Assembly: GCF_964194155.1 (NCBI RefSeq)
Contig: NC_135901.1
Location: 35,960,001 to 36,024,000 of the forward strand
Direction: 5' to 3'
From: Cetorhinus maximus
Taxonomy: Eukaryota
Length of the DNA: 64,000 nucleotides
Position numbers and translations under genes: made by a program. Shown piece after piece: positions 491 through 60,868 of the stretch. Position 1 is the stretch's first letter. Every line of letters starts with the position of its first letter. Under the pieces are notes generated by a model, which worked only from the letters and a program-made list of their open reading frames with translations, was not told where the DNA came from and made no database searches.

Positions 491-562
491 AGTTTCCAGC
501 CGGGATTGAACCCGGGACTTTCTCATATAAAGTAAACGTGATAATCAGTGCACTAGGGAAAT
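491..562 (-). pseudogene. tRNA-Val-derived pseudogene, copy 1
   Basis: Minus strand ATTTCCCTAGTGCACTGATTATCACGTTTACTTTATATGAGAAAGTCCCGGGTTCAATCCCGGCTGGAAACT is colinear with vertebrate tRNA-Val (GTTTCCGTAGTGTAGTGGTTATCACG...GGTTCGAAACCGGGCGGAAACA); stems mismatched, B-box retained. Confidence 0.8.
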
Positions 563-689
563 GAGTGTGAATCACCCCCGGACAGAGGGGAACTGACCAT
601 CCATCTCTAGCTCTAATTCCCAAACAGAAAATGCTGCCAAGAATCAGCAAGTCAGGCTGAGTCTGTGACCGCTCTCACCATCTGAAACC

Positions 690-1100
690 GTCACAATGCC
701 CGGCTGATTGACGGCAGCTCGGGACCAATAGGAAGAGGTGGCGGGACTGGGGGTCTGAGCAGGAGCGGCTGGTCCTCCAACCAATCGGAGTCAATGAGGG
801 GCGGGGCGCAGGTGCAGGGTCATTGTGCCTGAAGCAAGGGGAGTGTGGGAGCTGAAGGAGGAAGGAGGCGGGAAAGGGTGAGTGACAGCCGAGTACAGGA
901 GAGAAATGGAGTCAGTGCGGACTCGAAGGTTTCATAAACACTCGGTGCAAACCTCCAGCCCCGAATTAGAAACTCCCGGTCCAGCGTTTGCACCAAATCG
1001 GCAACTGAGACTCTTCAGGTCTCAGGCCCGGGGTAACGGCCGCCATCTTTCTCGGGGCAATGTGCAGCAGGGCGCATGCGCGGTCATCCTGGTCCAGGTA
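690..1100 (+). promoter_or_regulatory. CpG-rich ZNF promoter cassette P1
   Basis: CCAAT at 725 and 781, GC box GGGGCGGGG ~798-806, donor-like GTGAGT at 878, YY1-type GGCCGCCATCTT ~1038-1049, NRF1-type GCGCATGCGC 1072-1081. Confidence 0.7.
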
Positions 1101-1429
1101 ATAGGAGGAGAGAATGTTGTGAATTTCTATCCTGGACTAACAGGGGTGGATTTTGGAAACTCCTTTCACAGGGGGTTAGAAGGGGAGAATTTACACACAG
1201 CAAACTCAAACCAAGGGAAATGTTTCCTCTTCTGATATAGATCTTGTAAATTTCTATCACAGGATATTAGAAGGGGAGGGTTGACAGACAGAAAATGCAA
1301 ATCAAGAATCCCATCAAGATCTGACAGTCACTCGATTCATCAGAACCTGAATATCATCGGCGTTTGAATGTGGAAGGAATAAGGTTTGTTTGTTTGATAT
1401 ATGGGATGAGGTTTTGAACATCTGTATGA

Positions 1430-1810
1430 CTGGAAATAGAGAGGGAGAGACCGTGGAAGGATTTGAAAACAAGAATGTGAATTTTAAAATTGAGGTGCTG
1501 CTTAACCAGGAGCCTGTGCAATCCATGAGCAGAGTGGTGGGATGAGCTGAGACTAGGGTGGAGTTGGGTAATATACTGAGGTGGTGATAGGTGATCTCCA
1601 TGAGGATGCAGATATATGCAAGCTAATCTTGGGTACAATATGACACCAAAGTTGTGAACACTCTGGTTCAGCACCAGCCAGTTATCAGGGATAGGGATGG
1701 CTCCATGGCTATGGAGTGGAGTTTGTAGCAGGGACTGAAGACACTGGCTTCAGTCTTCCCAATATTTAAATGGAGGAAATCGTTCATCCAATATTGGATT
1801 TCAGACCAGT
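1430..1810 (-). mobile_element. L2-type LINE fragment
   Basis: LNQSVHNFGVI..LHRLLVKQHLNFKIHILVFKSFHGL, typical of L2 ORF2 C-terminus. Confidence 0.7.
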
Positions 1811-1984
1811 CAGGATGGGTTTGGAGGGGAACTTGAGATGATGGTTTTCAGATAAATCTGCTACCCTGGTCCTTCCAGGTGGTGGAGGTTTTGTCAAAAC
1901 TTTGGGTGAGTTTTAAGTATTGAAAATCCCTCTCGGTCTCCCTCTGATGCTGCCACCACTTTTCTCTCTCTTTCCCCATGGAGT

Positions 1985-2290: not shown

Positions 2291-3186
2291 ATGGAAGGAA
2301 AAAGCACCGTTCACAGTGGGGAGAAACCGTACACGTGTTCTGTGTGTGGACAGTCTGTGGAACTGCGGGAACTGTGTGCAGGGATTCAGAACCCCATCTG
2401 ATCTGGAAACTCATCAGTGCACACGCACCAGGGAGAGACCGTCCATCTGCTCTGAGTGTGGGAAGCGATTCACTCAGTTATCCCACCTGCTGATACACCA
2501 GCGAGTTCACACTGGGGAGAGGCCTTTCACCTGCTCCGAGTGTGGGAAGGGATTCACTCAGTCATCAAACCTGCGCACACACCAACGAGTTCACACAGGG
2601 GAAAGACCGTTCACCTGTTCTGAGTGTGGGAAGAAGTTCACTCATTCATCCGATCTGCTGACACACCAGCAAGTTCACACTGACAAGAGACCTTTTAAAT
2701 GCCCAGACTGCGGGAAGTGCTTTAAAAGTTCCAGGGAACTATTGTCCCATCAACATGTTCACACTGACGAGAGACCGTTCAGGTGCCCTCACTGTGGGAC
2801 TGGGTTCAGACATTCATCTCACCTCACTGTACACCAGCGAATTCACACTGGGGAAAGGCCATTCACCTGCTGAGTGTGGGATAGGATTCACTCAGTTATC
2901 CAACCTGCTCGCACACCTGCGAGGTCACACTGGGGAGAGACTGTTCACCTGCTCCGAGTGTGGGAAGGGATTCACTCGGTCATCTGATCTGCTGACACAC
3001 CAGCGAGTTCACACTGGGGAGAGACCATTCACCTGCTCCGAGTGTGGGAAGGGATTCACTCGGTCATCTGACCTGCTGACGCACCAGCAAGTTCACAGTG
3101 GGGAGAGGCCATTCACCTGTTCTGAATGTAGGAAAGGATTTACTCGACCATCTGAGCTGCTGAGACACCAGCAAAATCATGAATAA
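2291..3186 (+). pseudogene. C2H2 zinc-finger array pseudogene (~10 fingers, two frameshifts)
   Basis: [19 protein letters not shown] at 2291; deletion/frameshift near 2352 fuses fingers 1 and 2; 2-bp loss near 2870; TGERPF linkers in ORFs 2316..2873 and 2755..3186; AATAAA at 3293. Confidence 0.88.
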
Positions 3187-4095: not shown

Positions 4096-4599
4096 AAAGC
4101 AGTTGGTCATCTGACCTAATATGTCCTTATGCCCCTGTGAAACTTCTTGGGACAATGTATTACGTTAGATGCTCGATATAAATATAAGTTGTTGTAATTC
4201 AGTCAGACCTGATCACTTACTGAGTCTGTATCAATGTAACTCAGACAGACACAGCTTGTTGGAACAGACCTGGGGAGAAGAAGCTCTGAATTAATTACTG
4301 GACTTTCTGTTTGCCACAGTTGGGAAAATGGTGATTCTGTCCACACATCCAAATGAAGAATCAAGTCATCAAAGATGATTTGTTGTTTTGAGTTGAATTA
4401 TTTGGTAGAATTAGAGTGAAGGAATGGGATTGACCCACAGCCTGAGCCACCACTTTAAGGACAGGAAACGTGAGAATCTGGAGAGGAGAGAAGAATTAGT
4501 AGGTGACTGGGCACTGAATCTGGAACAATGAGCAGAGAGGGGGAGCAATGTGTGGGACAGGGGTTTATAGACTTGGGGGAATGAAAGGAGAAAGAATAT

Positions 4600-4862
4600 T
4601 CCATAGAAACTAGAATTGTCTGTTCTGAATTTCTATCCTGTACTGACAGTAAACACTTCGTGTAAACTCTATTCACAGGGGATTAGAGGTAGAGGATTTT
4701 CAGATGGGAAAATCAAACCAAAAATCTTGCAAGATCTTATAGAAACACCAAATTCATAAATGATCAGCCTCTGATTATGGAAGGAAAAATGTTTGTCTGT
4801 TCTGTCTGTGGGGAAGATTCACATCATCAGTGTGACTGGAAAATCATCAGGACACACACGAG
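4600..4862 (+). pseudogene. Orphan ZNF acceptor/head module with one dead finger, truncated by L2
   Basis: TCTATCCTGTACTGACAG..TTCACAG|GGGATTAGAGG..ATGGAAGGAAAAATGTTTGTCTGTTCTGTCTGTGGG; no finger array follows. Confidence 0.65.
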
Positions 4863-4869
4863 TTGGAAT

Positions 4870-5380
4870 CACATCTCGGGGTCAAACCTGACATCATGTG
4901 TGCAAAAAGTCTGGTTTACATTCAGACAGTTGTGAGGAAGAGGGATGGAGTTGGTAGCTCGGGAATAAAAACAATGGCTTCAGTCTTCCCAATGTTTAAT
5001 TGGAGGAAATTTCTGCACATTCACCACTGGATATCAGAAAAACAGTCTGATAATTTAACAAAAGTGGAGAAGTAGAGAGAGATGGTGGTGAGGTAGAGCT
5101 GGACACTGTCAGTGTACATGTGATAACTGACACTGTTTTCAGATGATGTCGTTGTGCAGAGCATGTTGATGAGAAATAAGAGGAGGCCAAGGCTGGATCC
5201 TTTGGGGACACCAGAGGTAACCGTGGGAGAGGGAAGGGAAGACATTACAAGGGATTCTCTGGCTATGATTAGACAGAGAAGAATGGATCCAGGAGAGAGC
5301 AGCCCCACCCAGCTGGACGACAGTGGAGAGGTGTTGAGCAGAATGGTGTGGTCATCCTTGTCAAAGGCTGTAAACAGGTT
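4870..5380 (-). mobile_element. L2-type LINE RT fragment
   Basis: VTSGVPKGSSLGLLLFLINM..SYHMYTDSVQLYL. Confidence 0.75.
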
Positions 5381-6065
5381 GAAGCTTGTGTAAATCAGTC
5401 TAAATTTGACAGATTGACATACAGTTTTTAAAAAAGCATATTTTCAGGATTATGAAAAGTTTTATGAGCCATAAAATGTTTGTAGAGGAGAAAACACCTT
5501 TCTGACTGTACATCACACCAATAGCTTCTGTTGAATATAAGTGAAACCATATTGTAGTGACTATGATAAAATCTGCTTGTGTGTGTAATTGGCAGTCATG
5601 TATATGAAATATCCTCTACACGCAGAAATGGAATTTCAAGATTTTATTTAGTGAAGAATTATAGAGTTATAAAGGGAATTATTAAGAGTTAATTATACAT
5701 GAGTCCAATTTACAATGTAGACTTTACACTATTTTAAATTTCCATTGAGCTTAGAGCAAGTATTTAGCTGCTTGAAGTGCTCTCTGCAGAATAATGATTG
5801 TCCAAACTGTCGGTCTGAAGCCTCCTCCCTGCTCAACATCTCCTGTAACCCCCAGATTTTCACTCCAGGGTCACACCAAGTTTCAGACATTAAAATGGGG
5901 TTTCACCGGGAAAAGGTTTGGGTAGCGCTGGATTAATAGACTCAGCGCATTGTGTTTAACACTAAACTGTTTTATTTGACTTTTATGTGGAATATATTAA
6001 CATTAGCAGCCCCTAATGAACAGTGTTCAGTCCTGGATGTGATTAACAGCAAAATCCAATCACTG

Positions 6066-6518
6066 TCATGACTCATGAACTTGCTGGTGTCTCAGCAGGT
6101 GGGATGAGGTAGTGAATCCCTTTCCACACTCGGAACAGGTGAATGGTCTCTCCCCAGTGCGAACTCGCTGGTGTCTCAGCAGGTTGGATGACCGAGTGAA
6201 TCCCTTTCCACACTCTGAGCAGGTGCACAGTCTCTCCCCAGTGTGAACTCGCTGGTGTCTCAGCAGGTGGGATACCTGAGTAAATCGTTTCCCGCACACG
6301 GGGCAGGTGAACGGCCTCTCCCCAGTGTGACTGCGCCAATGCGTTTCCAGCTGAGACTGGTAGATAAATCCCTTCCCACATTCCCCACATTTCCACAGTT
6401 TCTCCCCAGTGTGACTGCGCCAATGCGTTTCCAGCTGAGACGGGTAGTTGAATCCCTTCCCACATTCCCCACATTTCCACAGTTTCTCCCCAGTGTGAAC
6501 GGTGCCTTTTCCCTCCAT
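6066..6518 (-). CDS. C2H2 zinc-finger protein, 5 fingers (150 aa), no effector domain
   Basis: Open frame from ATG ([16 protein letters not shown]); fingers 1 and 2 are an 84-bp tandem duplication; finger 4 ends HQRVR; acceptor-like site ~6624; AATAAA (minus) at 5971-5976. Confidence 0.75.
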
Positions 6519-6974
6519 ATTCAAAACCTAATGATATTCAGGTTACGATACATTGGGCAACTCCGTCAGATCCTGATGTGATGTTTGGTTTCAGTTTCCT
6601 GCAAATCCTCCCCTTTTAATACCTTGTGAAATTGATTTAAAACAGAAAAAAGGGAGTGAGAGAGAACCCACAAAAACACAAAGGCAGGTTGTGAAATTGA
6701 GCTGAATGAATCTGGGAATTTGTGGGGCTGGCACTAGGAAAAAGTGACCATGAAAACTGCTGATTGTCATAAAAACCCAACTGATTCACTAATGTCCTTC
6801 AGGGAAGAGAACCAGCCACCCGGTCTGGATCTACACAAGACTCTAGCCTCTATGGGAGCAGATGAGAGGGAGAGAGAGAGAGAGAAATGGGAGTGGGTGC
6901 AGGGGAGCGAGAGATTAGAGTGAGAGACGGGGGTGAAGGAGAGGGATATCTGGCACCATCTGTGCAGAGAGAAA

Positions 6975-7016
6975 CAGAGTTAACATTTCGAGCCCTTGAG
7001 ACTCTTCTTCAGAATT
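6975..7016 (-). ncRNA. Minimal hammerhead ribozyme motif in a Penelope-like fragment
   Basis: Minus strand AATT CTGAAGA A GAGTCT CAA GGGCTC GAAA TGTT AACT: CUGANGA and GAAA core plus a 6-bp stem II; duplicate at 61320-61360. Confidence 0.55.
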
Positions 7017-7169
7017 GGTGAAGCAGAGGGGATTTATATTTCTACAACTCGGCCAGAACTTAGGCAGAATCTCCCAAACCTTCAAACTCCAACCTAGAAG
7101 GACCAGGGTAGCAGGTGTATGTGAACACCATTACCTCCAAGTTCCCCTCCAAGTAACACACCATCCTGA

Positions 7170-7855
7170 CTCGACTGACATCCGGTACTGGATGAGTAGA
7201 AATTTCCTTTATTTAAACATTGGGAAGACTGAAGTCATTGTCTTCAGTCCTCTCTACAAACTCCACTCCCCAGACACCTGCTCCATCCCTCTCCCTGACA
7301 ACTGTCTGAGACTGAACCAGACTGTTCACAGCCATGGTGAAATATTTCACCCCAAGATGAGCTTCCAACCACATATCCACATCATCACCAAGACCGCCTA
7401 TTTCCACCTCAGTAACATCGCCCGACTCCAGCCCAGTCTCAGCTCATCTGCTGCTGAAACTCTCATCCATTCCTTTGTTACCTCTCGACTTAACTATCCT
7501 AACACTCCCGGCTGGTCTCCCACATTCAACCTCCCTGTAATCTTGAGGTCATCCAAAACTCTACTGTCCCTGTGTTTACTCGCACCATGTCTTGTTCACC
7601 CATCACCCTGTGCTCACTGACCTGCAAAGGCTCCGGGTTAAGGGGAACTGAAATTTGAAATATCTCATCCCTGTTTTCACATTCCTGCACCCTAACTCAG
7701 AAATCTCCACCAGCCTCGCAACCCTCTGAGATATCTGAACTCCTCTGATTCCAGCCTCCTGTGCATTCCTGATTTGAATCACTCCAGCATTGGTAGCCAT
7801 TTTGTCAGTTTCGAAGTCCCAAGCTTTGGAATTTCCTCCCTAAACCTCTCTACCT
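7170..7855 (+). mobile_element. L2-type LINE 3' fragment
   Basis: DIRYWMSRNFLYLNIGKTEVIVF..TKTAYFHLSNIARL..AETLIHSFVTSRLNY. Confidence 0.85.
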
Positions 7856-9460
7856 CCTGAGGTCCCCAGCATCAGAGATGCCAGTCTTCAGCCAATTCGA
7901 TTCGCTCCACGTGATATTAAGAAATGGCTGAAGGCACTGGGTACTGGAAAGGCTATGGGTCCTGACAATATTCTAGCAATAGTATTGAAGACTTGTGCTC
8001 CAGAACTTGCCGCACCCGTAGCCAAGCTGTTCCAGTACAGCTATAACACTGGTATCTACTTGGCTATGTGGAAAAATGTCCTGTACACAACAAGTAGGAC
8101 AAATCCTACCTGGTCAATTGCCACCCCATCAGTTTACTCTGGATCATTATAAAGTGATGGAAGGGGTCATCAACGCTTCTGTCAAGCGGCACTTACTTAG
8201 CAATAACCTGCTCACTGATGCCCAGTTTGGGTTCCGCCAGGGCCACTCAGCTCCTGACCTCATTGCAGCCTTGAACCAAACATGGACAAAAGTGCTGAAC
8301 TCTAGAAGTGACATGAGAGTGACTGCCCTTGATACCTTGGCAGCATTTGACCAAGTGTGGCATCAGGGAGCCCTAGCAAGACTGGAGTCAATGGGAATCA
8401 GGGATGAGTGGGTGGGTGGAGTCATACTGAGCACAAAGGAAGATGGTTGTGGTTGGTGGAGGTCAGTCATCTCAGTTCCAGGATATCACTGCAGGAATTC
8501 CTCAGGATAGTGTCCTGGACCCAGCCATCTTCAACTGCTTATCAATGACCTTCCTTCCATCATAAGGTCAGAAGTGGGGGTATTTGCTGATGATTGCACA
8601 ATGTTCAGCACCATTCACGACTCCTCAAACACTTAATAACTCCATCCTCAAATGCAGCAATATCTGGACAATATCCATGCTTAGGCTGACAAGTGGCAAG
8701 TAACATTCACGCCACACAAGTGCCAGGCTATGACCATCTCCGACAAGATAGAATCTAACTATCGCCCCTTGACATTCAAGGGCATTACCATCGCTGAATC
8801 CCACACTATCAACATCCTGGGCGGTTACCATTGACCAGAAACTCAACTGGACTAGCCATATAAATACTGTGCCTACAAGACCAGGTCAGAGGCTAGGAAT
8901 CCTGTGGTGATTAACTCACCTCCTGACTCCCCAAAGCCTGTACACCATCTACAAGGCACAAGTCAGGAGTGGGCTGGAATACTCTCTATTTGCCTGGATG
9001 AGTGCAGCTCCCACAACATTCAAGAAACTTGACACCGTCCAGGACAAAGCAGCCCGCTTGATTGGCATCACATCCACAAACATTCACTCCCTTCACCATC
9101 GACGCACAGTAGCAGCAGTGTGTACCATCTACAAGATGCACTGCAGGAATTCATCAAGGCTCCTTAGACAGTGCCTTCCAAACCTGTGACCACTACCATC
9201 TAGAAGGACAAGGGCAGCAGATAGATGGGAACACCACCACCTGGAAGTTCCCCTCCAAGTCACTCACCATCCTGGCTTGGAAATATATCGCCGTTCCTTC
9301 ACTGTCGCTGTGTCAAAATCCTGGGACTCCCTCCCTGACAGTACGGTGGGTGTAACCTACACCACATGGACTGCAACGATTCAAGAAGGCAACTCACCAC
9401 CACCTTCTCAAGGGCAATTAGGGATGGGCAATAAATGCCCAACCCAGCGAAGCCCACATC
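7856..9460 (+). mobile_element. LINE family A, 5'-truncated RT plus 3' end
   Basis: GPDNILAIVLKTCAPELAAP..QFGFRQGHSAPDL..FADD motif; multiple stops and frameshifts. Confidence 0.85.
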
Positions 9461-10168
9461 CCTTGGAAGATTTCAGAAGAAAACCCCCTGGAAGATTCCC
9501 TTTAAAAGCGACATCTTTGACCAAGCTTTTGGTCACCGGCCCTAATATCTCCTCATGTGGCTCAGTGTCAAATGTTACTTTTCTGTGAAATGTCTTGGAA
9601 CATGGAATAATATTAAAAGTGTGATAGAAGCAGAATTGATTGTTATTGATTTGGAATTATAAGGCCATCCCTTCATCATCGCTGGGTGAATAACCTGTAA
9701 CTCCTTACCTAACAGCATTGTGGGAGCACCTTCACCACACGGACTACAGTGGTTCAAGAAGGTCAAACATCATCTTCTCCACAAGCAACTGGGGATTGGC
9801 AATATTTGTTGGTATCTGTGGAGAGGGAAACAGAGTAAACATTTCAGGGTGTGCAGAATGAATTACAGGGAATTAAAATGGTGCAGAATTTGATGGTCAA
9901 TATGATCTCAGAGGTGGAAGATAAATGGACTATAGCGCAGGGGGAAACAATTCCTGACGATGAAAGATATTGAGAGAAGATAAAGCTAGGAAGCCAGCAG
10001 CACATGGTCGGGGGATGGGTAGCAGTGAAAACTTCATTTAGATTCAGTCAGCAAAAGTAACAGTAAAACACTAAACAGCTAAAATACACCCATATTAGAG
10101 ACAGAGGAAGTTGGGCAATAGCAGAGAGGTGATCAGAGAGGACAGAGCTGAAACAGAGCAATGGATGG

Positions 10169-13600: not shown

Positions 13601-13999
13601 TAACGATAGTTAACGAAAACCTGTTCCCATTAACTGATTGTAAAATGATTACGGGACACAGATTAAAGATTTTGGGCAAGATCTGTAGGGGCATTGAGAG
13701 GAAGAAAATTTACACAGTGAGTGGTAATGACCTGGAACTCAATGATTACACTCAGAGGCCGATAATATCCAGGTCCTGAATTTCTATCCTGGGCTGACAG
13801 TGCCATGTTTGGGAAACGATTTATACAGAGCATTAGAAAAGGATGATGCAGGTCCTGATGAATCGAGTGACTCTGTCATATCTAAAAGTTATGATGGTCT
13901 TGACATTCCCGTCTGTAAATCCTCCCCTTCCAACCCCCTGTAAAAGGAGTTTCCAAAATCCATCCCTGTCAGTCCAGGATAGAAATGCACAACATTCTC

Positions 14000-14420
14000 T
14001 CCTCCTGGTACCTGGACAGGATGACCGCGCATGCGCCCTGCTGGACATTGCCCCCTATAAAGATGGCGGCCGTTACCCCGGGCCTGGCGAAGGGAGAAAT
14101 CCAAACCTTTTCGGCCTGTTCTCTGCAAACACAAGACCGGTACCTTGTTATTTGAGGTCTGCGGCCTGCACTGTGTCTTTATGAAGCCTCCCTGCCCATT
14201 CTTCTGGCTCCATTCCTCCTCACACACCCACTATCTGTTAGTTTGCTCTGTTCGACGTTCTCTCAACCGCTCTGAGCAGCTTGTCACAGACCAACACTGC
14301 GCATGCTCAAGAAACACCGCAATGCGCATGCCCAGTACACACCGTAATGCGCATGTGCAGGGAGCCTCTGTAGTGGCAATAGGGCACATTCTGTTCCCCT
14401 TTGCTGGGTAGCCCCGCTGC
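14000..14420 (-). promoter_or_regulatory. CpG-rich ZNF promoter cassette P2 (NRF1-rich type)
   Basis: AAGATGGCGGCC (YY1-type) ~14060-14071, GCGCATGCGC 14027-14036, three further TGCGCATG motifs at 14298-14358; head module at 13850-13940. Confidence 0.68.
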
Positions 14421-15741
14421 TATTGAAAGTTCATATTTCTGAATAGGAAATTATTATTTGTGATCCAGTGACGATTGGAGCCACAGGGCCAAGATAGAAC
14501 AATGTTTCTTTATATCACTTGACTTAATAAAGTGCACTGGTCTTCCGCCATAGTTCTGTGCCAGGTGTAATTAACAGCAGAACAAATCCCTAGTTAGATG
14601 TGAAATCACTGGAATCTCAGCAGGCCGTGTGAACAAGTGATTTTTCATTCCATACACAGAACATTTAAATTCTGTCGTCAGTAAGGATGTAACAAATCAG
14701 CTGGTGAATGATCATTTCACAGTGTGATTTTACCCATAAGTTTCCAGCTCACACAGGGATCTCAAACCCTTCGGATAATGAGTTCCACATTCTCAACAAT
14801 CTCCAGTTATCAAAAAGCGGGTGCTGTGAATCTGAAATTAAAATGGAAAATGCTGGAATTTTTTGCAGATCTGGTAGTACCGGTACAGTGAGGAATATAG
14901 CATCAGTGAACAGTCCTGAAAACTTAACTCTTCTCAATGCAGATGCACCTAGATGTGCTGAGTGTTCCTGGAACATTCTGCATTATCTCTGGTGAATGAA
15001 AATTGATCATGATTTACACATTAGATTTATTAGTGACTAACTTATATTTATTTCCATCCATTCATAAGTGGAAACATCTTCCACGTGTCCATCCTTTCAA
15101 ACCCTTTCACTATCTTAAAGTCCTCGGTCAGATCATCTCTCACTCTCTTCTCCAAACAAAACCTTTGCAAACTGTTGAATCTTTGTTGATTGATATCACT
15201 TTCCAATTCTGGCATCATTCCATTAAACTGTTTTGCACCTTCCCCAGTGCTTCTCGATCCAATTTAACATATGGAGACAGCGCTAATCTGAGCACCAACA
15301 TCACTATTGCCCCAAATTCCTGTATGTTGGAAGGGTCAGTATGGCAGTGGGAGAGAGCACTGTGGTTTCGAGCTATTATTCATCATCCTCTATTTGAGAG
15401 ATTATCTCACTAGAATATTTGGACACTAAGGGAATCAATGGATATGGGAATGGGGCGAGAAAGTGGAGTTGAGCTGAAAGATCATTTAATGGTGGAACAG
15501 GCTCAAAGAGCCATATGGTCCACCCCAGCTCCTATTTCTTGTTTTCTTATGAACATCACTGTGAATCATTTCCATACAAGCACAGCAGATGCAGCACCCG
15601 CCCTTCACCTCTTCCCTTCCCACATTCCAGGTCCACAAACACACTTTCCAGGTGACACAATGAAAAAGGTCAGCGACCTGAAACATTCCGTCCGCTTGGT
15701 CAACATGAAACTAAACTTACGATTAATTCCTCCTCAGTAAC

Positions 15742-18735: not shown

Positions 18736-18869
18736 GAGTGTGAATCCCCCCCGGACAGAGGGGAACTGACCATCCATCTCTAGCTCTAATTCCCAAACAG
18801 AAAATGCTGCCAAGAATCAGCAAGTCAGGCTGAGTCTGTGGCCGCTCTCACCATCTGAAACCGTCACAA

Positions 18870-19265
18870 TGCCCGGCTGATTGACGGCAGCTCTGGACCA
18901 ATTTGAAGAGGGGGCGGGACTGGAGGAACGAGCGGGAGCGGCTGGTCCTCCAACCAATCGGAGTGAATGAGGGGCGGGGTTCAAGAGCGACGCCACGCGC
19001 AGGCGCAGTGTCATTGTACCTGAAGCCCGGTGAGTGCGGGAGCTGAAGGAGGAAGGAGGCGGGAAAGGGTGAGTGACAGCAGGAGAGAAATGGAGTCAGT
19101 GCGGACTGGGAGGTTTCATAAACACCAACGTAGGACTCAAGACTCGAATTAGAAACTCCCAGTCCCGCGTTTGCACCAAATCGGCAACAGCTGGGGGTAA
19201 GGGCGCCATCTTTATAGGGGGCAATGTGCAGCAGGGCGCATGCGCGGTCATCCTGGTCCATGTAA
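18870..19265 (+). promoter_or_regulatory. CpG-rich ZNF promoter cassette P3
   Basis: Two CCAAT boxes, two GC boxes, GCGCAGGCGC, donor-like GTGAGT at 19030 and 19069, CGCCATCTT ~19204, GCGCATGCGC ~19237. Confidence 0.7.
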
Positions 19266-20507
19266 CAGGAGGAGAGGATGTTGTGAATTTCTATCCTGGA
19301 CTGACAGGGATGGATTTTGGAAACTCCTTTTACAGGGGGTGAGAAGGGGAGGATTTACACACAGCAAACTCAAACCAAGAGAAATGTTTGTCTCTTCTCT
19401 ATTTCTTTCCTGGCCTGACAGTAATGCCTTTGAATACTTTTTTGCAGGATATTCCATCAGGATTCTCAGACGGGACACACACTAAACATCACAGCTAAGT
19501 GGCACTTAATCACTCCATTCATCAGGACGTGGATATTATCGGCTTCTGAGTGTAAGTGTTGAGTTCCAGGTCATTACCACTCACTGTGTAAAATTTCTTC
19601 TTCACATTCCCCCTCTAGATCTTGCACCAAATCTTAAAACTGTGTCTTGTAATCCTTTTACTAACAGCTATTGTGAATGGCTTTTCTTTATCTACCTTAT
19701 GTGAACCTATCATTAAGTTGCACACCTCCATCAAATCTCCCTTCAACCTAAGATAAAAGAAAAACACTACGGATGCTGGAAATCTGAAACAAAAACAGAG
19801 AGCAGAAGAGTCATCCGGACTCAAAACGTTAATTGTGTCTTTCTCTCCACAGATGCTGTTAGACCTGCTGAGTTTTTCCAACATTTGCTGTTTTTGCTCC
19901 CTTCAACCAACTTGGCTTCAAGGAGAACCACCCCAGTTTCTCCAACCAGGGTATCAGGAGTGTGCACCATCTATAAGATGCATTGCAGCAACACACCAAG
20001 GCTCCTTCAGCAGCACCTTCCAAACCCGTAACTTCTAACACCGAGAAGGACAAGGGCAGCAGACACATGGGAACACCACCACCTGCAAGCTCCTCTCCAA
20101 GTCATACACCATCCTGACTAGGAACTATATCGCCGTATGTCTCGGGGTGGGGTAACTTGGAGGTAATGATATTCACGTGTACCAGCTACCCTGGTCCTGC
20201 TAAGTGGTGGAGGTTGAGGGTTCCCCCATCGCGCTGTCTCTCTTTCTCTCTCTCTCTCTCTCTTGATCAGCTTTAACGTTCCACTTTCTCCTAGTGCCGA
20301 CCTCACAAATTATTCATTAGCTTGGTTTCACAACCTGCCTTTGTATTTTTGTGGGTTCTCTCTCACTCCCTTTTTTCTGTTTTAAATTAATTTCACAGGG
20401 TGTTGGAAGGGGAGTATTTACAGTCAGGAAACTGAAACCAAACATCACACCAGGATCTGACAGAGTCGCCCAATGCATTGTAACCTGAATATCATTAGAT
20501 TTTGAAC

Positions 20508-21519: not shown

Positions 21520-21699
<180 letters not shown>

Positions 21700-43661: not shown

Positions 43662-44610
43662 TTACTTGTGAGTTCTCTGGTGTCTCAGTAGGTGGGATGA
43701 CTGAATGAATCCCCTCCCACACACGGAGCAGGTAAATGGCCTCTCCCCAGTGTGAATGCGCTGGTGTACAGTGAGTTGAGATGATTGCCTGAACCCAGTC
43801 CTACAGTGAGAGCACCTGAATGGTCTCTCGTCAGTGTGAACACGTTGATGAGGCATCAATTCCTGAGAACGTTTAAAGCACTTCCCACAGTCTGGGCATT
43901 GAAAAGGTCTCTCGTCAGTGTGAACTCGCTGGTGTATCTGCAGGGCGGTTGAATTACTGAATCGCATCCCACACTCAGAGCAGGTGAATGGCTTCTCCCT
44001 GGTGTGAACTCGCAGGTGTTTCTGCAGGATGGATAACTGAATCCCTTCCCACACTCAGAGCAGGTGAATGGTCTCTCCCCAGTGTGAACTCGCTGGTGTG
44101 TCAGAAGGTTGAAAGACCGAGTGAATGCCATTCCACACTTGGAGCAGATGAACGGTCTCTCCCCAGTGTGACAGCGCTGGTGTACAATGAGTGACATGAG
44201 GCCTTGAACCCGCTCCCACAGTGAGAGCACCTGAATGGTCTCTCATCAGTGTGAACATGTTGATGGGACATCAGTTCCTGAGAACTTTTAAAGCACTTCC
44301 CACATTCTGGGCATTTGAAAGGTCTCTCAACAGTGTGAACCCGCTGGTGTCTCAGCAGGGTGGATAAACCAGGAAGTCCTTTCCCACACTCAGAACAGGT
44401 GACTGACCTCTCCCCAGTGTGAACACGCTGGTGTGTCAATAGGTGGGACAACCGAGTGAATCCCTTCCCACACTCGGAGCAGGTGAACGGTCTCTCCCCA
44501 GTGTGACTGCGCCAATGAATTTCCAGCTGGGATGGGTAACTGAATCCCTTCCCACAGTCCCCACAATTCCACAGTTTCCTCCCAGTATGAACAATGCTTT
44601 TTCCTTCCAT
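43662..44610 (-). pseudogene. 11-finger C2H2 ZNF with two frameshifts (4 intact fingers before the first)
   Basis: [19 protein letters not shown]; 1-bp loss ~44190 and 4-bp loss ~44037; finger-by-finger paralog of the 20508 gene. Confidence 0.85.
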
Positions 44611-45689
44611 GTTCAAAGGCTGATGATCTTCAGGTCCCGATGAATCCAAAGACTCTTTCAAATCCTAATCTGTTGTTTTGTTTCAGCTTCCCAACTGCAA
44701 ATCCTCCCTTCTAATACTCTGTGAAATTGATTACAACAGAAAAAAGGGAGTGAGAGAGAGCCTACAAAAACACAAAGGCAGGTTGTGAAATTGAGCTGAA
44801 TGAATCTGGGAATTTGTGGGGCCGGCACTGGGAAAAAGTGACCATGAAAACTGCTGGATTGTCATAAAAACCCAACTGGTTCACTAATGTCCTTCAGGGA
44901 AGGGAACCTGCCACCCGGTCTGGACCTACACTAGACTTTGGCCCACAAGGGAGGAGAGGGAAAGAGAAAAAGAGCGAAAGAGAGAGGTGGGAGAAGCAGA
45001 GGGACTTTATGTATCTAGAGCTTGACCAGAACCCTGACAGAATCGCCCAAACACTCAACCTCCATCACTCAGCAGGACCAGGGTTGCAGGTGTATGTGAA
45101 CACGATCACCCCCAAGTTCCCCTCCGAGACACACGGCGATATAGTTCTAAGTCAGGATAGTGTGTGACTTGGAGGGGAACTTGCAGGTGGTGGTGTTCCC
45201 ATGCATCTGCTGCCCTTGACACTCTCAGTGTTAAAGGTCACAGGTTTGGATGCTGCTGCCGAACCAGCCTTGGTGTGTTGCTGCAGTGCATCTTGTAGAT
45301 GGTAAACACTCCTGACACTGTGGCTGGAGAAACTGAGGGTGCCAAGTAAGTTGAAGGGAGATTTGATCGAGGTGTGCAAGTAAATGGTAGGTTTAGATAA
45401 GGTGGATAAAGAAAAGCCATTCACAATAGCTGATAGTAAAAGGATTACAAGACACAGTTTTAAGATTTAGTGCAAGACCCACAGGGGGGATGTGAGGAAG
45501 TAATTTACACAGTGAGTGGTAATGACCTGGAACTTACACTCAGAGGCCGACAATGTCCTGGTCCTGAAGGATGGAGTGATTCAGTCAGGTTTTGATGTGA
45601 TGTTTGGTTGGAGTTTCCTGTCTGAGAATCCCGCTGTAATATCCTGCAGAAAGTGAACAAGAGGCATTACTGTCAGAGGGCGGCTCTTA

Positions 45690-46035
45690 CCCCGGCTCGG
45701 AGATCGGAAGAGGCCGCAGCTGCTGTCGGTTTGATGTAAACAGGGACCGGGAGTTTCTAATTCGGGTCTTGAGTCCTCCACCGGCTGTTTATGAAACCTC
45801 CCAGTCCGCACTGACTCCATTTCTCTCCTGCACTCGGCTGTCACTCACCCTTTCCCGCCTCCTTCCTCCTTCAGCTCCCGCACTCCCCGGGCTTCAGGTA
45901 CAATGACACTACGCCTGCGCGGAACCTCAGCCCTCTCGCCCCGCCCCTCATTCACTCCGATTGGCTGGAGGACCAGCCGACCCCGTTCGGACCTCCAGTC
46001 TTCCTATTGGTCAATCAGCCGGGCATTGTGACGGT
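45690..46035 (-). promoter_or_regulatory. CpG-rich ZNF promoter cassette P6 (YY1/NRF1 block deleted)
   Basis: Reverse complement of P1/P3: ATTGG at 45960 and 46006, GC box ~45938, donor ACTCAC ~45843. Confidence 0.62.
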
Positions 46036-46159
46036 TTCAGATGCTGAGAGCGGCCACAGACTCAGCCTGACTTGCTGATTCTTGGCAGCATTTTCTGTTT
46101 GGGAATTAGAGCTAGAGATGGATGGTCAGTTCCCCTCTGTCCGGGGGGGATTCACACTC

Positions 46160-46231: not shown

Positions 46232-47410
46232 TTGTGTTTACAATTGTTACTGAGGAGGAATTAACAGTGAGTTTAGTTTCATGTCGAACAGGGGAACAGT
46301 TATTGTCTCATTCTGTAAAAGCTCCTTCTTCACCTTTAAACAGGGAACGATAAGTCAGAGAAAACTGATCCACTGTGACCCTGAAACAAGATTCTGCAGA
46401 TGCTGCAAATCCGACCTCAAAACAGAAAATGTTGGAAACACTCAGCAGGTCAAACAGCTTCTGTGGAGAGGGAAACAGAGTGAATGTTTCAGGTCGGTGA
46501 CCTTTTATCCAAACTGGAAGGATTTAAAGATGGGGCCAGTGTGTCGGGAGACGGGACAAGTATACAGTACATGTTGCTGACCTTCAAAATTCACACGATT
46601 CCTGATGTTCATGAGTTGCCTCACTTTCTTTCCCATTAAATCCATTTGCTGATCTATCAGTAATGGACTTGCTGCCATCTCGAATAAAACTGTTTTCACC
46701 ACTAAGGGTCCGCTGGTATTTAATAGTCTTCATGATTCGTTGAATTTAAATTCCACCAGCTGTGATTCTGAATCTCAACCACAAAATGCTGATAGTACTC
46801 AGTGGTCATGCCGAGGCTGTGGAAAGTAAAACAGTTAATAGTTCAGGTCATTGAACTTCAAACAGAACTGGAAAATAAGTGAGTGATTCAACAGATTTTA
46901 GGAAAATACACAGACAGGAGAAAGGAGGGGAGGGGAGGAGAACAAAAGAGAAGGTTTCTGATTGGATGAATTCGGGAGAGCTGAAATAACAAAAGGGATG
47001 AGGATACAGGACAAAAACTATGGTAATGGAACGAGTAAATAAACTAAAGGTGGGAGAGTCATTTTGTACCTGTTGTCTATTCTGCTCTGATTTGAGATGT
47101 GTTGCTTTGCTGTTGACCCATATGACTTCTATCCCACACTGAAAACTCTTAATCCCTCTCCGCCAGAGATTTTATTGAGCAAACACATGCAAGCATACAA
47201 GAAAAGTCTCATCATTTTTAAACACTGAAATACCAAAACATAGAAATATTTACTACCTAGAAGGTGGCCATTCGATCCATCATGTCCATGTCGGCAGAAA
47301 AAGAACAAGCTGAAGAAGGGTCATTCAGACTCGAAACATAAGCAGAAACAGACCACCATGAACATGGTTCAGTCCTGGATGTGATTAACAGCAAAATCTA
47401 TTCCCTGTCC

Positions 47411-47860
47411 TTACTCGTGAGTTCGCTGGTGTTTCAGGGGGCTCGATGACTGAGTGAGTCGCTTCCCACATTCAGATCAAGGGAATGCTCTCTCTCCACT
47501 GTGAATGCGCTGGTGCACAGTGAGGTTAGATGATTGTCTGAACCCAGTCCCGCATTGAGAGCACCTGAACGGTCTCTTGTCAGTGTGAACTCACTGGTGT
47601 GTCATCAGGGTGGATATTTGAGTGAATTCCTTCCCAGACTCGGAACAGGAGAATGGCCTCTCCCCAGCGTGAGTGCGCCAATGAGTTTCCAGCCTAGAAA
47701 GGTAACTAAATCCCTTCCTACCATCCCCACATTACTACAGTTTCTCCCCGGTGTGATGGCGCATGTGTTTAAACAGGTCAGATGATCGGATGAAGCCTCA
47801 TCCACACACAGAACATGTGTACGGTTTCTCCCCACGGTGAACGGTGCTTTTTCCTTCCAT
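47411..47860 (-). pseudogene. 5-finger C2H2 ZNF pseudogene with multiple stops
   Basis: [44 protein letters not shown]. Confidence 0.85.
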
Positions 47861-49849: not shown

Positions 49850-50335
49850 CGACCGCCTTCATCCCGTTCCCGCACCCGTACTGCGCATGCTTCGCTCCAG
49901 CCTGGCACCGCCCCTAATTTACTCCGATTGGCTGGAGGATCAGCCGCCCACGCTCGGTCCTCCAGTCCTGCCCCCTCCACCTATTGGTCCGCAGCTGTCG
50001 TCAATCATTAAGAGTTGGAGCATGCGCAGACTGTGCGGACGGAAGGTAAACGAGGTCTTGCGAGTGGATTTAAAATGCACGTTTTACAAAGACTGAGTTG
50101 GGATTCAGAGCCGAAAATAAACGCGTGAAGAAAAATAGGGCCGGTGGGTGGGTTGAGAGGCTTCATAAACTCACGGTGTGGGCCCCAAAACCTCAATAAG
50201 AAGCCATCGGTCCCGCGTTTCACGAAGCGGAACGACAGCTGAGGCTTTTCTCCGGAAATAGGCCCGAGGTGATGGCCGCCATCTTTGTAGGGGGCAATGA
50301 GCAGCAGAGCGCATGCGTGACCGCCATGTTTACAG
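49850..50335. promoter_or_regulatory. Probable bidirectional CpG promoter P7
   Basis: Minus-oriented CCAAT/GC cassette 49880-50008 fused to a plus-oriented block: GCATGCGCA ~50019, GGCCGCCATCTT ~50274, GCGCATGCG ~50309. Confidence 0.65.
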
Positions 50336-53515: not shown

Positions 53516-54341
53516 ATTAGTCATCAGGAAGAGAAGCAGGAACCAGAATGGGTCATGAGACTGATCCTAGGTTTAACTTAGTTAGAGAGGGAGAGAAGGA
53601 AGGAAGGAAACCCTGGGAGGTTTGGAGAAACCACCTTCACAATCACTCATTAAATCACCACGCAGTATGTTTTGGACACAAGATTAATGTCTGCTATTCT
53701 GTATGGTCGGACAGGGGGTTTCAGATTAATCTTTTGTCATGAGTAATGAGTGAAGTGAATGATCAGAGATATTGTTATCTCCAGTTGCACAAATTTGTTT
53801 AAAAAGATACAGAAAAAAATTGTCCAAAACTCTGTTTGGAATTCAGCACAGGGAGGAGGGCGAGTGTGTGGGACGGGGATTTGTAGCTTTCGGGGAACAA
53901 GGGAGGAAAAAAATGTTCCACAGGAACGAGAATTGTCTGTTCTGAATTTCTATCCTGTTCTTACAGTGATGACTTTTGTAAACTCCTTTTGCAGAGAATT
54001 AAAGGGGAGGATTTGCAGACGGGAAACTCAAACCAAACATCACATCAAGTTCTGACAAAGTCACTCGATTCATCAGGACCTGAATATCATCGGCCTTTGA
54101 ATGTGGAGGGAGAAATGTTTGTCTGTTCTGTCTGTGGGAAAATATTTCAAACATCAGTGTGACTGGAAAAGCACTGAGACACACACACACCCGAGTGAGA
54201 GTGTTCCAGTGAACTGACTGTGGGAAGAGCTTTAACCAGTTACACAGCCTGAAATAACATCACACCATTCACAGCGGGGAGAAACAGTACGTGTTCTCTG
54301 TGTGATCATCAAACCTGGAGAGACACAGGGACACCTGCACC

Positions 54342-55436
54342 ATGGAGAAACCGTGGAAATGTGAGGAGTGTGAGAAAGGATTCGATTACCCATCCCAGCT
54401 GGAAAAACATCGACGCAGTCACTCTGGGGAGAGGCCGTTCACTTGCTCTCGGTGTGGGAAGGGATTCACTCAGTTATCCCACTTGCTGAGACACCAGCGA
54501 GTTCATGTTGAAGGTCGGCCATTCACCTGCCCTAAATGTGGGAAGGGATTCACTCACTTATCCCAACTACTGACACACCAGCGAATTCACACTGGGGAGA
54601 GGCCATTTACCTGCTCCGAGTGTGGGAAGGGATTCACTACATCATCTGACCTGCTGACACACCAGCGAGTTCACACTGGGGAGAGACCATTTACCTGCTC
54701 CGACTGTGGGAAGGGATTCATTCGGTCAGCCCACCTGCTAACACACCAGCGAGTTCACACTGGGGAGAGGCCATTCACCTGCTCTATATGTGAGAAAGGA
54801 TTCACTCGGTCCTTTGACCTCCTGAAGCACCAGCGAATTCACACTGAGGAGAGACCGTTCAGCTGTACTTCCTGTGGAAAGAGTTTCAGGTCTCCATTCC
54901 ATCTCACTGTACACCAGCGAATTCACACTGAGGAGAGGCCGTTCAGTTGTACTTCCTGTGGAAAGAGATTCAGGTCTTCATTCAGTCTCACTGTACACCA
55001 GCGACTTCACACTGGAGAGAGGCCGTTCATCTGCTCTAATTGTGGGAAGGGGTTCAATCAAGCAGTTAGTCTACTGAGACACCAGCGAGTTCACACTGGA
55101 GAGAGGCCGTTCACCTGCTCCGAGTGTGGGAAAGGATTCACTGGGTCCTCTGACCTGCTGAAGCACCAGCGAATTCACACTGAGGAGAGGCCGTTCAGCT
55201 GTACTTCCTGTGGAAAGAGATTCAGGTCTTCATTCAGCCTCATTGTACACCAGCGACTTCACACTGGAGAGAGGCCATTCACCTGCTCCAAATGTGGGAA
55301 GGGATTCACTCAGTCATCTCACTTACTGACACACCAGCGAGTTCACACTGGGGAGAGGCCATTCATCTGCTCCAAATGTGGGAAGGGATTCACTCAGTCA
55401 CCACATCTGCGTAGACACCAGCGAGTTCACAAGTGA
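54342..55436 (+). CDS. C2H2 zinc-finger protein, intact, 13 fingers (364 aa), no effector domain
   Basis: Uninterrupted ORF of 13 x 28 aa, ACCATGG Kozak context, all Cys/His ligands present; acceptor TTTTGCAG at ~53993. Confidence 0.92.
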
Positions 55437-56924: not shown

Positions 56925-57245
56925 CCGTCTCCCAAAAAGCTGCCCCCATCTCCCGAAACGCTGCCCCCATCTCCCGACACTCTGCCCATCTACCCACACT
57001 CTGCCCCCATCTCCCGACACTCTGCCCCATCTCCCCACACTCTACCCCCATCTCTGATACTCTGCCCCCATCTCCCGACACGCTGCCCCCATCTCCCGAC
57101 ACTCTGCCCCCCATCTCCCGACACTCTGCCCCCATCTCCCGACACTCTGCCCCCATCTCCCAACACACTGCCCCATCTCCCCACACTCTACCCCCATCTC
57201 CTGATACTCTGCCCCCATCTCCCGACACTCTGTCCCCATCTCCCG
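56925..57245. repeat. 21-bp minisatellite, ~15 copies
   Basis: (CCCCATCTCCCGACACTCTGC)n with variants. Confidence 0.95.
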
Positions 57246-58252
57246 AGCAGCCTGTCTCTACCTCTGCTGAACCCTCACAGGATGCACCATGTTGAAACCA
57301 GAGGAAAGGACTGGGTGAGAAATTATAATTCACCAAGGGTGTGCACATGGAGGTTTGACAAAATATTAAGTTTCCTGTGTTTAACAATGACACAAAAAAT
57401 GTATTGATTGGGACCACTTCCAGCTCTTGTCCATTCTGACATCCCGTGGGCGAGCTCGCCCTCTCACTGGGTTCATGCTGAATATCAATCCAGGCTGGGA
57501 ACCATTGGGTGGATGTGCAATGGGTGGATGAGTGGGTGAAGGAATGTTCAGTTCACAGGGAGGGGGATGGGGGAGGGGGGTTGGTGCTGGTGGTGGTAAG
57601 TGTTCATTCTGAAGGAGTCCCACCTGAAACAGTGACCACTAACTTATCACTTTCTAATGGTGATTGACCTGCTGTTTATTTCCCCAGGTTTGTTCTGTTT
57701 AGTATTTCAGTATTTATATATTTTTGTTTTTGCTAAAACATGTTCTTGTTCTGACACTGAAATCCAGAGGATTTTAACTCTGTTAATGTCAATCTCCATC
57801 GAGTACACAGGAGGACTCAACTGTTCCAAACTTCTTATGGTATCAATAAACCAATATCCTACAAGATGTTTATTTGGCGAATTGTTTTTCTCTGAGACCC
57901 GGGACAGTCAAACTATGTCCCAAAGTTCAGATTTTGGCTTTGAGCCTGGGCTATGGGGCCCACATACATGGAGCACCATTACGGGATGCCCTTCATCCCC
58001 GATTTTAATCACTCTACCATTGGTGGCCGGGCCTTCAGCTGTCTGGACCCTAAGCTCTGGAATTTCCACCCTAAATCTCTCCAGCTTTCTAATTCACTTT
58101 CCCCCTTTCAGACACTCTTTCGAGCCGACTTCTTTGACCAAGCAGTTGGTCATCTGACCTAATATGTCCTTATGCCCCTGTGAAACTTCTTGGGACAATG
58201 TATTACGTTAGAAGCTCGATATAAATATAAGTTGTTGCATTTGTTGTTGTAA

Positions 58253-58685
58253 TTCAGTCAGACCTGATCACTTATTGAGTCTGTATGAATGTAACTCAGA
58301 TAGACACAGCTTGTGTCATAGTCGTGAGATCTGATCACTCACTGAGTGAGAGAGTCTGTATCAATATAACTCAGATAGACACAGCTTGTGTCATAGTTCA
58401 GTGAGACCTGATCACTTACTGAGTGAGTGAGTCTGTATCAATGTAACTCAGATAGACACAGCTTGTGTTCAGTGAGATCTGATCACTTCCTGAGTGAGTG
58501 AATCTGTATGAATGTAACTCAGATAGACACAGCTTGTGTTCAGTGAGATCTGATCACTTCCTGAGTGAGTGAGTCTGTATCAATGGAACTCAGATAGACA
58601 CAGCTTGTGTCATAGTTCAGTGAGACCTGATCACTTACTGAGTGAGTGACTCTGTATCAATGTAACTCGGATACACACAGCTTGT
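58253..58685. repeat. ~72-bp tandem repeat, 6 copies
   Basis: TTCAGTGAGA(C/T)CTGATCACTT..TGAGTCTGTATCAATGTAACTCAGATAGACACAGCTTGTG; single unit at 4198-4259. Confidence 0.92.
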
Positions 58686-60500
58686 TGGAACAGACCTGGG
58701 GAGAAGGAAGCTCTAAATTAATTACTGGACTTTCTGTTTGCCACAGTTGGGAAAAAGGTGATTCTGTCCAAACTTCCAAATGACTAATCAAGTCATCAAA
58801 GATGGTTTGTTGTTTTGAGTTGAATTATTTGGTAGAATTAGAGTGAAGGAATGGGATTGACCCACAGCCTGAGCCACCACTTTAAGGACAGGAAACGTGA
58901 GAATCTGGAGAGGAGAGAAGAATTAGTAGGTGACTGGGCACTAAATCTGGAACAATGAGCAGAGAGGGGGAGGAATGTGTGGGACAGGGGTTTATAGACT
59001 TGGGGGAATGAAAGGAGAAAGAATATTCCATAGAAACTAGAATTGTCTGTTCTGAATTTCTATCCTGTACTGACAGTAAACACTTCTGTAAACTCTATTT
59101 ACAGGGGATTAGAGGGAGAGGATTTTCAGATGGGAAAATCAAGCCAAAAATCTTGCAAGATCTTATAGAAACACTGAATTCATAAATGATCAGCCTCTGA
59201 TTATGGAAGGAAAAATGTTTGTCTGTTCTGTCTGTGGGGAAGATTCACATCATCAGTGTGACTGGAAACTCACTGGGACACACACACACACACACACACA
59301 CGAGTTGGAATCGCATCTCGGGTCAAACCTGACATCACGTGTGCAAAAAATCTGGTTTACATTCAGATAGTTGCCAGGGAGAGGAATGGAGTTGGTAGAT
59401 CGGGAATGAAAACAATGGCTTCAGTCTTCCCAATATTTAATTGGAGGAAATTTCTGCACATTCACCACTGGATATCAGACAAACAGTCTGATAATTTAAC
59501 AAAAGTGGAGAAGTAGAGAGAGGTAGTGGTGAGGTAGAGCTGGGCACTGACTGTACATGAGACTGTGTTTTCAGATGATGTCACTGTGGCGAGCATGTTG
59601 ATGAGAAATAAGAGGAGGCCAAGGCTGGATACTTTGGGGGCACCAGAGGTAACTGTGGGAGTGGGAAGGGAAGACATTTCAAGTGATTCTCTGGCTATGA
59701 TGAGATAGAAAAGAATGGATCCAGGAGAGAGCAGCCCCACCCAGCTGGATGACAGTGGAGAGGTGTTGGAGCAGAATGGTGTGGTCATCCTTGTCAAAGG
59801 CTGCAGACAGGTTGAAGCTTGTGTAAATTAGTCTAAATTTGAGAGATATACATATACAGTTTTTAAAAAAGCATATTTTCAGGATTATGAAAAGTTTTAT
59901 GAGCCATAAAATGTTTGTAGAGGAGAAAACACCTTTCTGACTGTACATCACACCAATAGCTTCTGTTGAATATAAATGAAACCATATTGCAGTGACTATG
60001 ATAAAATCTGCTTGTGTGTGTAATTGGCAGTCATGTATATGAAATATCCTGTACATGCAGAAATGGAATTTCAAGATTTTATTTAGTGAAGAATTATAGA
60101 GTTATAAAGAGAATTATTAAGAGTTAATTATACATGAATCCAATTTACAATGTAGACTTTACATTATATTAAATTTCCATTGAGCTTAGAGCAAGTATTT
60201 AGCTGCTTGAAGTGCTCTCTGCAGAATAATGATTGTCCAAACTGTCGGTCTGAAGCCTCCTCCCTGCTCAACATCTCCTGTAACCCCCAGATTTTCACTC
60301 CAGGGTCACACCAAGTTTGAGACATTAAAATGGGGTTTCACCGGGAAAAGGTTTGGGTAGCGCTGGATTAATAGACTCAGCGCATTGTGTTTAACACTAA
60401 ACTGTTTTATTTGACTTTTATGTGGAGTATATTAACATTAGCAGCCCCTAATGAACAGTGTTCAGTCCTGGATGTGATTAACAGCAAAATCCAATAACTG

Positions 60501-60868
60501 TCATGACTCATGAACTCGCTGGTGTCTCAGCAGGTGGGATGAGGTAGTGAATTCTTTTCCACACTCGGAGCAGGTGAATGGTCTCTCCCCATTGTGATCT
60601 CGCTGGTGTCTCAGCAGGTTGGATGACCGAGTGAATCCCTTTCCACATTCTGAGCAGGTGCACAGTCTCTCCCCAGTGTGAACTCGCTGGTGTCTCAGCA
60701 GGTGGGATACCTGAGTAAATCGTTTCCCACAGACGGAGCAGGTGAACGGCCTCTCCCCAGTGTGCCTGCGCCAATGAGTTTCCAGCTGAGACTGGTAGAT
60801 ACATCCCTTCCCACATTCCCCACATTCCACAGTTTCTCCCCACTGTGAACAATGCCTTTTCCCTCCAT
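60501..60868 (-). pseudogene. 4-finger C2H2 ZNF, frameshifted paralog of 6066-6518
   Basis: ATG at 60868; span of 368 bp is not a multiple of 3 because of a 1-bp loss at ~60826; F-to-C change in finger 1. Confidence 0.82.

Follow-up and report, generated by a model that had tools for sequence, protein, structure and literature searches.

The stretch analysed here, referred to as the window, comprises 64,000 nucleotides (64 kb) of the shark Cetorhinus maximus (assembly GCF_964194155.1, contig NC_135901.1, positions 35,960,001 to 36,024,000 of the forward strand) and lies on a 65-Mb chromosome (C24) of a 4.0-Gb genome. It contains a cluster of Cys2His2 (C2H2) zinc-finger (ZNF) genes whose products consist of little but fingers. 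A six-frame scan revealed 73 fingers of the form C-x2-C-x12-H-x3-H, which fall into eight arrays of at least three fingers and a decayed ninth (47400-47860). A preliminary description of this DNA had divided the nine arrays into three open, two truncated and four broken ones, a split that the translations reproduced exactly. Two subfamilies are present: seven arrays are of type A (starting with MEGK) and two of type B (starting with MEKPWKC), the latter with a different splice acceptor and a mostly different 3′ untranslated region (UTR).

The intact type A gene (26666..27460, minus strand) encodes 264 residues, namely a MEGK leader, an atypical first unit, a lead finger marked by a tryptophan (W-finger), seven further fingers and a four-residue tail. 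The intact type B gene (54342..55436, plus strand) encodes 364 residues with 13 fingers, begins at the W-finger and has a one-residue tail; PF00096 matched 8 stretches in the former protein and 13 in the latter. The third open array, of type A (6066..6518, minus), is short, with five units, a doubled W-finger, one His>Arg change and an altered acceptor. Truncated arrays are found at 20508..21696 (type A, plus; a stop at 21363-21365 and a frameshift after it) and 38348..39442 (type B, plus; two in-frame stops). The broken type A arrays are those at 2292..3186 (plus, two frameshifts) and 43662..44610 (minus, frameshifts), the decayed array at 47400..47860 (minus, several stops), and a broken duplicate of the 6066 array at 60501..60869 (minus), with a frameshift within the W-finger. 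Besides these nine, the window holds one-finger remnants at 48307-48548 (plus) and 30020-30200 (minus), four headless acceptor/head remnants and, between the genes, reverse-transcriptase fragments and one GIY-YIG fragment.

In order to compare gene structures, 106 genes were annotated in the window and in fetched loci (designated L), most of which were chosen by similarity, favouring intact genes. Excluded were four genes at locus edges (leaving 102), a record counted twice, arrays lacking a detectable acceptor block and genes in which fewer than five fingers were canonical; 70 intact genes with at least five fingers were retained. These 70, like the two intact window proteins, have at least five TGEKP-linked fingers on one exon, as expected of tandem (poly) C2H2 proteins. 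In 64 of the 70, stops in the finger frame lie between the splice acceptor and the ATG, which makes the fusion of an upstream exon impossible; the same applies to 16 of 16 genes in stretches not picked by similarity. The acceptor phases are mixed, and insertions and deletions in this segment (the head) include 1, 2, 5, 16 and 17 bases, which are not multiples of three. Heads are open in only six genes, across two phases. A YAG follows the last stop in 27 genes, with a pyrimidine tract behind it in only 2 of the 64. At the other end, the protein terminates 1-4 residues past the last finger in 66/70 genes.

Searches for effector domains were in agreement with this structure. Pfam detected no effector family (SCAN and BTB included) in 150 of the 153 upstream frames of at least 45 residues. 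A genome-wide search for KRAB (PF01352) gave three matches, all on contig C34 and none on C24. The three C34 exons (9.11-9.41 Mb, L041-L052), which provide a positive control for this search, are near-identical, and each is followed 12-18 kb downstream by a homogeneous finger exon (9, 5 and 10 fingers). These exons resemble the PRDM9 type, and the loci are possibly three PRDM9 paralogues. No SCAN domain was found on C24 among the 150 matches listed (of 4987 candidates), and BTB was looked for in the upstream frames. The nearly 5000 SCAN-like candidates are scattered over large contigs and are presumably gag capsids of long terminal repeat elements. FiNZ was excluded indirectly, by the head stops and mixed phases, no FiNZ profile having been used. 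KRAB, SCAN or BTB is listed for none of 23 elasmobranch relatives, and KRAB is listed for the dog and bat hits. The stops in the heads, the short tails and the negative Pfam, KRAB and SCAN searches bear out the preliminary description, which had called the genes effector-less and had named an upstream effector exon, spliced in, as the finding that would overturn this view. The proteins are very likely finger-only.

The preliminary description had further placed each array on one exon. This is correct for the coding sequence, but the genes likely have one or two further non-coding 5′ exons. The head of the intact type A gene (27461..27569, minus) is a 109-nucleotide untranslated leader with two in-frame stops and resembles decayed coding sequence, while that of the intact type B gene (53995..54341, plus) has 347 nucleotides, five in-frame stops and the remains of three dead fingers. 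A promoter-proximal copy of the head at 19448..19551 (plus) ends in a GT donor and is likely a non-coding exon 2; its paralogous junction occurs in run X2 and in the named model P0004, which joins the same two heads. Of 43 head-like ends examined, 11 are promoter-proximal head copies with such a donor, and many of the others are final-exon heads. In run X2, which is from another organism and RNA by guess, the final acceptor (L037:1987) is joined, by a single contig in each case, to 2545, precisely the donor site of the head copy, and to 2565; both joints were missing from run X1 and from run X18, presumably of DNA. Contig pieces of X1 and X2 start at the acceptor of the 20508 gene. These data hint at an exon order of a short exon 1, a head-copy exon 2 and the final exon. 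A presumed-RNA run from the same species (X23, 11 million letters) covered almost nothing, and no RNA run is listed as holding the stretch. Finger-to-finger joints and repeats dominated the first assembly; contig depth forms no part of the evidence.

In 67/70 intact genes the ATG is flanked by A at −3 and G at +4. A longer ancestral N-terminus is likely, because the head resembles former coding sequence, the type B heads contain three dead fingers and a skate model holds a head-like segment in frame. Mixed phases and frameshifts in the type B head gave no support to its coding for a separate, conserved peptide, and a protein search with the head peptide returned one candidate, with none scored. 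Between type A paralogues the intron end and the head differ by 7% and 10%, respectively, which is below the synonymous divergence (dS 0.235) and suggests conversion or constraint at the RNA level.

A distinctive part of the proteins is the lead finger (W..PS.LE), in which Trp precedes the first Cys, position +1 is Pro and position +5 is Glu. It is present in 65/70 intact genes and in 15 of the 16 unselected ones, always first or second in the array (27269..27337, minus, in the intact type A gene; 54354..54422, plus, in the intact type B gene). Among 610 internal fingers the Trp occurs in none, Glu at +5 in one and Pro at +1 in 13, and the mean net charge is +0.3 for the lead finger vs +1.9 for internal fingers. 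The ratio of nonsynonymous to synonymous divergence (dN/dS) at Pro +1 and Glu +5 is 0.10. The synonymous divergence of the W-finger equals that of the array (65/341 vs 647/3466), and gene conversion was rejected as the cause of its conservation for this reason. Type B proteins start at the W-finger although the fingers upstream of it have died. The first array of 21 of the 23 elasmobranch relatives, two skates included, begins with it, decayed versions being present in the remaining two. In fused models it also stands at the beginning of several later arrays, whereas the hits from dog, bat and lizard lack it. The ESM Atlas yielded generic C2H2 clusters only and the PDB generic fingers only. 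The score of a complex prediction with two copies of the W-finger plus the next finger, with zinc and no alignment, was 0.00 and was counted neither way. Judged by its sequence pattern, the lead finger may possibly be a docking site for a partner protein, which we propose only tentatively.

Comparison of gene pairs revealed that the fold is under purifying selection. For 14 independent close pairs (dS 0.06), which may include alleles, the dN/dS of core Phe/Leu was 0.13, that of linkers 0.33 and that of base-contact positions 0.15 (interval 0.08-0.21). In 34 pairs with a synonymous difference (pS) of up to 0.4 the values were 0.12, 0.26 and 1.03 (0.85-1.20), respectively, so that in this set the contact positions change fastest; a smaller set of 17 pairs gave 0.14, 0.21 and 1.07, and the individual contact positions gave 1.08 (−1), 1.36 (+3) and 1.15 (+6). 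Positive selection at the contacts does not follow from these figures: the ratio is 0.15 in close pairs, and the interval of the deeper pairs spans 1. In a broken-versus-intact control of six pairs, too few for a neutral baseline, the overall ratio was 0.42 and that of contacts 0.71. The other finding by which the preliminary description might have fallen, unexpressed intact frames with no purifying selection, was not encountered, as framework and linker codons are under such selection; values for Cys/His are circular, as the finger pattern defines those residues.

Contacts are conserved in close pairs, so intact copies retain their reading code, a point in favour of function; on these substitution patterns the proteins are very probably functional sequence-specific binders. 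In the fingerprints (contact residues of successive fingers) of ten close pairs, the common fingers were almost unchanged and the differences were mainly whole fingers gained or lost. As read from the sequences, diversity accrues by finger shuffling together with slower change of contacts.

The window is a small sample of a much larger family. With one intact protein as the query, 17,474 candidates were obtained (145 scored), and the 150 matches listed lie on C24 or on contigs C200 and above. Exact copies of a 30-mer of the lead finger number 791, and those of a 25-mer around the type A start 732; of the first 100 occurrences listed, 96 and 97, respectively, are on C24, the lists following contig order. 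Twenty evenly spaced 10-kb samples contained five arrays, and all unselected stretches together 62 arrays in 864 kb, from which the array total extrapolates to roughly 1,600-4,700, with wide error. C24 holds at least about 800 such genes, and probably thousands. Of the unselected genes, 16/35 are intact, and the 70 intact genes carry 58 distinct fingerprint strings. Ten of the 70 (L026, L123, L126-L128, L130-L134 and others, C24 39-62 Mb) share an identical nine-finger fingerprint at about 1-2% synonymous divergence, reflecting either the very recent amplification of a single specificity or haplotypes left uncollapsed.

Named relatives were found in Cetorhinus, Scyliorhinus, Mustelus, Chiloscyllium and Heterodontus and in the skates Rhinoraja and Amblyraja, and the family therefore spans sharks and skates. 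The suggestion that it is lineage-specific fails, as four other shark genera and two skates have relatives that share its N-terminus. Birth-and-death evolution, also proposed at the outset, is supported by block duplications and broken copies. The genes do lie among fragments of long and short interspersed elements (LINEs and SINEs), but such fragments are found in the C34 control loci too.

Self-BLAST showed that the promoter, acceptor-head and 3′ modules said to be shared by the genes are real. The shared intronic SINE was recovered in part: type A introns have in common an end of about 250 nucleotides with a high-copy core (27570..27790, minus, in the intact gene), but other SINE-like copies lie at differing sites and look independently inserted. 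The shared type A 3′ UTR block (26424..26665, minus) has further copies near 3185-3424, 21701-21960 and 43410-43658. Seven CpG-rich, promoter-like blocks were found. That at 18846..19285 (plus) has CCAAT boxes, YY1-like and NRF1-like motifs and a short putative exon 1 with a donor near 19032; the others lie at 673..1121 (plus, 2292 gene), 29196..29660 (minus, of a second type, lying upstream of the intact gene at 27460), 13988..14691 (minus, also of the second type, which would serve the 6066 gene 7 kb away), 34329..34780 (plus, upstream of the 38348 gene), 45676..46049 (minus, 44610 gene, without the YY1-like motif) and 49880..50330, which is likely bidirectional, between the divergent 47860 (minus) and 54342 (plus) genes. 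Their CpG observed/expected ratio is 0.57-0.95 vs 0.32 for the whole window, and they contain 7/8 of its YY1-like motifs.

Two duplications account for several of the arrays. Arrays 6066 and 60501 belong to one 5.5-kb duplication (4195..9653 with 58613-64000, 94.4-94.6% identical; about 94.5%) with no promoter block adjoining, and an older one (36617..39685, plus, with 52623-55696, 83%) includes both type B genes.

The family bears on how the expanded ZNFs of cartilaginous fishes work without expanded KRAB families. Expanded KRAB families are reported to be absent from cartilaginous fishes (PMC8455134, PMC11603059), which have 475-3586 long ZNF open frames (PMC10547256, supplement). In the supplement of Wells et al. 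2023 (PMC10547256), Carcharodon has 1851 ZNF frames and Scyliorhinus canicula 3586; the shark ZNF expansion has therefore already been published, although sharks go unmentioned in the available main text, and the per-chromosome table of the accompanying notebook has a single sequence record for each of the two species. No paper describing the finger-only shark architecture or the lead finger was found, most subscription journals being outside the search, and the architecture is undescribed in the parts available of a whale-shark paper, PMC11603059 and the Squalomix preprint. Emerson and Thomas 2009 (PMC2604467) left undecided whether domain-less poly-zinc-finger models are real or annotation gaps; for one large family the gene structure itself answers this question, and a single candidate module of 28 residues, the lead finger, emerges.

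The shark family evolves like the KRAB and FiNZ clusters and belongs to neither. The cyprinid FiNZ-ZNF genes of zebrafish chromosome 4q (PMC10547256) likewise number hundreds to thousands on one chromosome, with one-exon arrays, rapid turnover and RNA genes nearby. However, FiNZ is a 28-residue acidic domain on its own coding exon, whereas the acidic element of the shark proteins is a zinc finger itself, and repression has been demonstrated for FiNZ, while the shark family is known here from sequence alone. With tetrapod KRAB-ZNF genes (PMC2604467) it shares TGEKP-linked arrays on the last exon, birth-and-death clusters and the fastest change at helix positions −1, +3 and +6, but the matches listed include no KRAB or SCAN exon on the shark chromosome, and the spacer before the shark fingers is untranslated. 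Human ZNF146/OZF (PMC8896011) is also finger-only and provides a precedent for transposon binding without KRAB, although it is a single conserved gene and not a chromosome-scale family. Single N-terminal C2H2 dimerisation fingers of Drosophila (PMC12774644) offer a parallel for such a finger as a protein-contact module; they need an adjacent beta-strand motif and are separate from the array, whereas the shark finger is joined by a normal linker.

We consider the chances about even that these shark and skate genes encode finger-only, predicted sequence-specific DNA binders of plausibly transposon-derived targets, which reach a partner via the acidic lead finger rather than via a fused domain. 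A CpG-rich promoter would drive a transcript with one or two non-coding exons derived from decayed coding sequence; translation would begin at the strong-context ATG in the last exon; the array would read specific DNA, plausibly derived from transposons; and the fixed acidic lead finger would recruit the partner. By analogy with the known families, whether the targets are mainly transposons appears evenly balanced. A bolder version, in which thousands of finger-only proteins form a transposon surveillance system of sharks and skates and the W-finger docks a co-repressor, as a third solution alongside KRAB and FiNZ, following the decay of an ancestral N-terminal coding region into 5′ UTR, is doubtful.

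Several observations weigh against this interpretation. Contact dN/dS is not confidently above 1 at the gene level and is low in recent duplicates, so an ongoing arms race is undemonstrated; when fingers are paired individually, contact dN exceeds dS only with a dS that the pairing itself biases downwards, and deep pairs may align non-homologous fingers. Under half of the unselected genes are intact (16/35). The splice evidence is one contig per joint from a presumed-RNA run of another organism. As regards the lead finger, the relatives were found with a query containing it, which biases its frequency but not its position; it keeps canonical C2H2 spacing and linker, its contact positions still drift (dN/dS 0.65), and Pro at +1 is also present in a ZFP568 finger. 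ZNF146 binds LINE-1, but its loss in HEK293 cells gave no LINE-1 de-repression in the data available from that report (PMC8896011).

Some of these points lend themselves to another explanation, that the proteins act alone by occupying sites and blocking transcription factors or polymerase, the lead finger being a structural cap or a weak DNA-backbone contact under ordinary purifying selection. The lack of any other domain and the canonical spacing and drifting contact face of the W-finger agree with this, and thousands of co-expressed binders could work by occupancy; but an acidic N-terminal finger that is fixed across sharks and skates and never shuffled inward is unexpected for an interchangeable DNA reader, and we regard occupancy alone as rather improbable. 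It is also unlikely that the genes are ordinary lineage-specific transcription factors of host genes, with the nearby retroelements reflecting general genome load and promoting duplication. The contacts conserved in recent duplicates (0.15) and the fragments in the C34 control loci would fit such a role, and transposon-promoted duplication is named as an alternative in the available text of Wells 2023 (PMC10547256), where ZNF and retroelement counts are nevertheless reported to correlate across metazoans; against it, the high pseudogene rate (16/35 intact) and the fingerprint turnover (58 strings in 70 genes) resemble those of the KRAB and FiNZ families.

Finally, a hidden effector exon might be spliced in frame through an unseen acceptor, or the array might be a largely neutral by-product of segmental duplication; either is highly improbable. 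The former could draw on the coding-like head, which is open in 6/70 genes and in some named models (P0002, P0004, P0021), on the fact that a FiNZ-sized exon (28 residues) falls below the 45-residue cut-off and on distant small exons, a known blind spot according to the accessible part of PMC2604467. However, the six open heads do not share one phase but are split between two, and of 6291 type B head candidates the best 150 are all confined to open frames of at most 200 residues. Neutrality of the intact copies is excluded by purifying selection on framework and contacts.

Several further features were recorded. C24 is rich in transfer RNA (tRNA) genes, with nine per 200 kb of the even samples (L001, L013, L018, L019, L035), including one with a TTA 'stop' anticodon (L035); zebrafish 4q and a tRNA and histone cluster of a stingray, as given in the available part of the Squalomix preprint, are comparable. 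ARAGORN called no tRNA in the window, and an Rfam search gave no matches. A decayed tRNA-like sequence, which received no ARAGORN call yet matches a called tRNA in L013, accompanies one promoter type and points away from the gene (about 492-563, 18666-18736, 34146-34216 on the minus and 46160-46230 on the plus strand). A LINE with long open frames (ORF1, 521 residues; ORF2, over 1000 residues) lies just upstream of a ZNF promoter and is co-duplicated with the gene (L030:3-4854, L031:4730-9710). A 242-residue open frame with the P-loop GTPRVGKS on C24 (L007:4301-5026) resembles an interferon-inducible GTPase. Within the window, the first intron of the intact 27460 gene contains two head-to-head SINE-like copies that form a 240-nucleotide inverted repeat (28926-29167, 92%), and short tandem arrays with units of about 21 and 71-77 nucleotides are present at 56915-57250 and 58247-58685.

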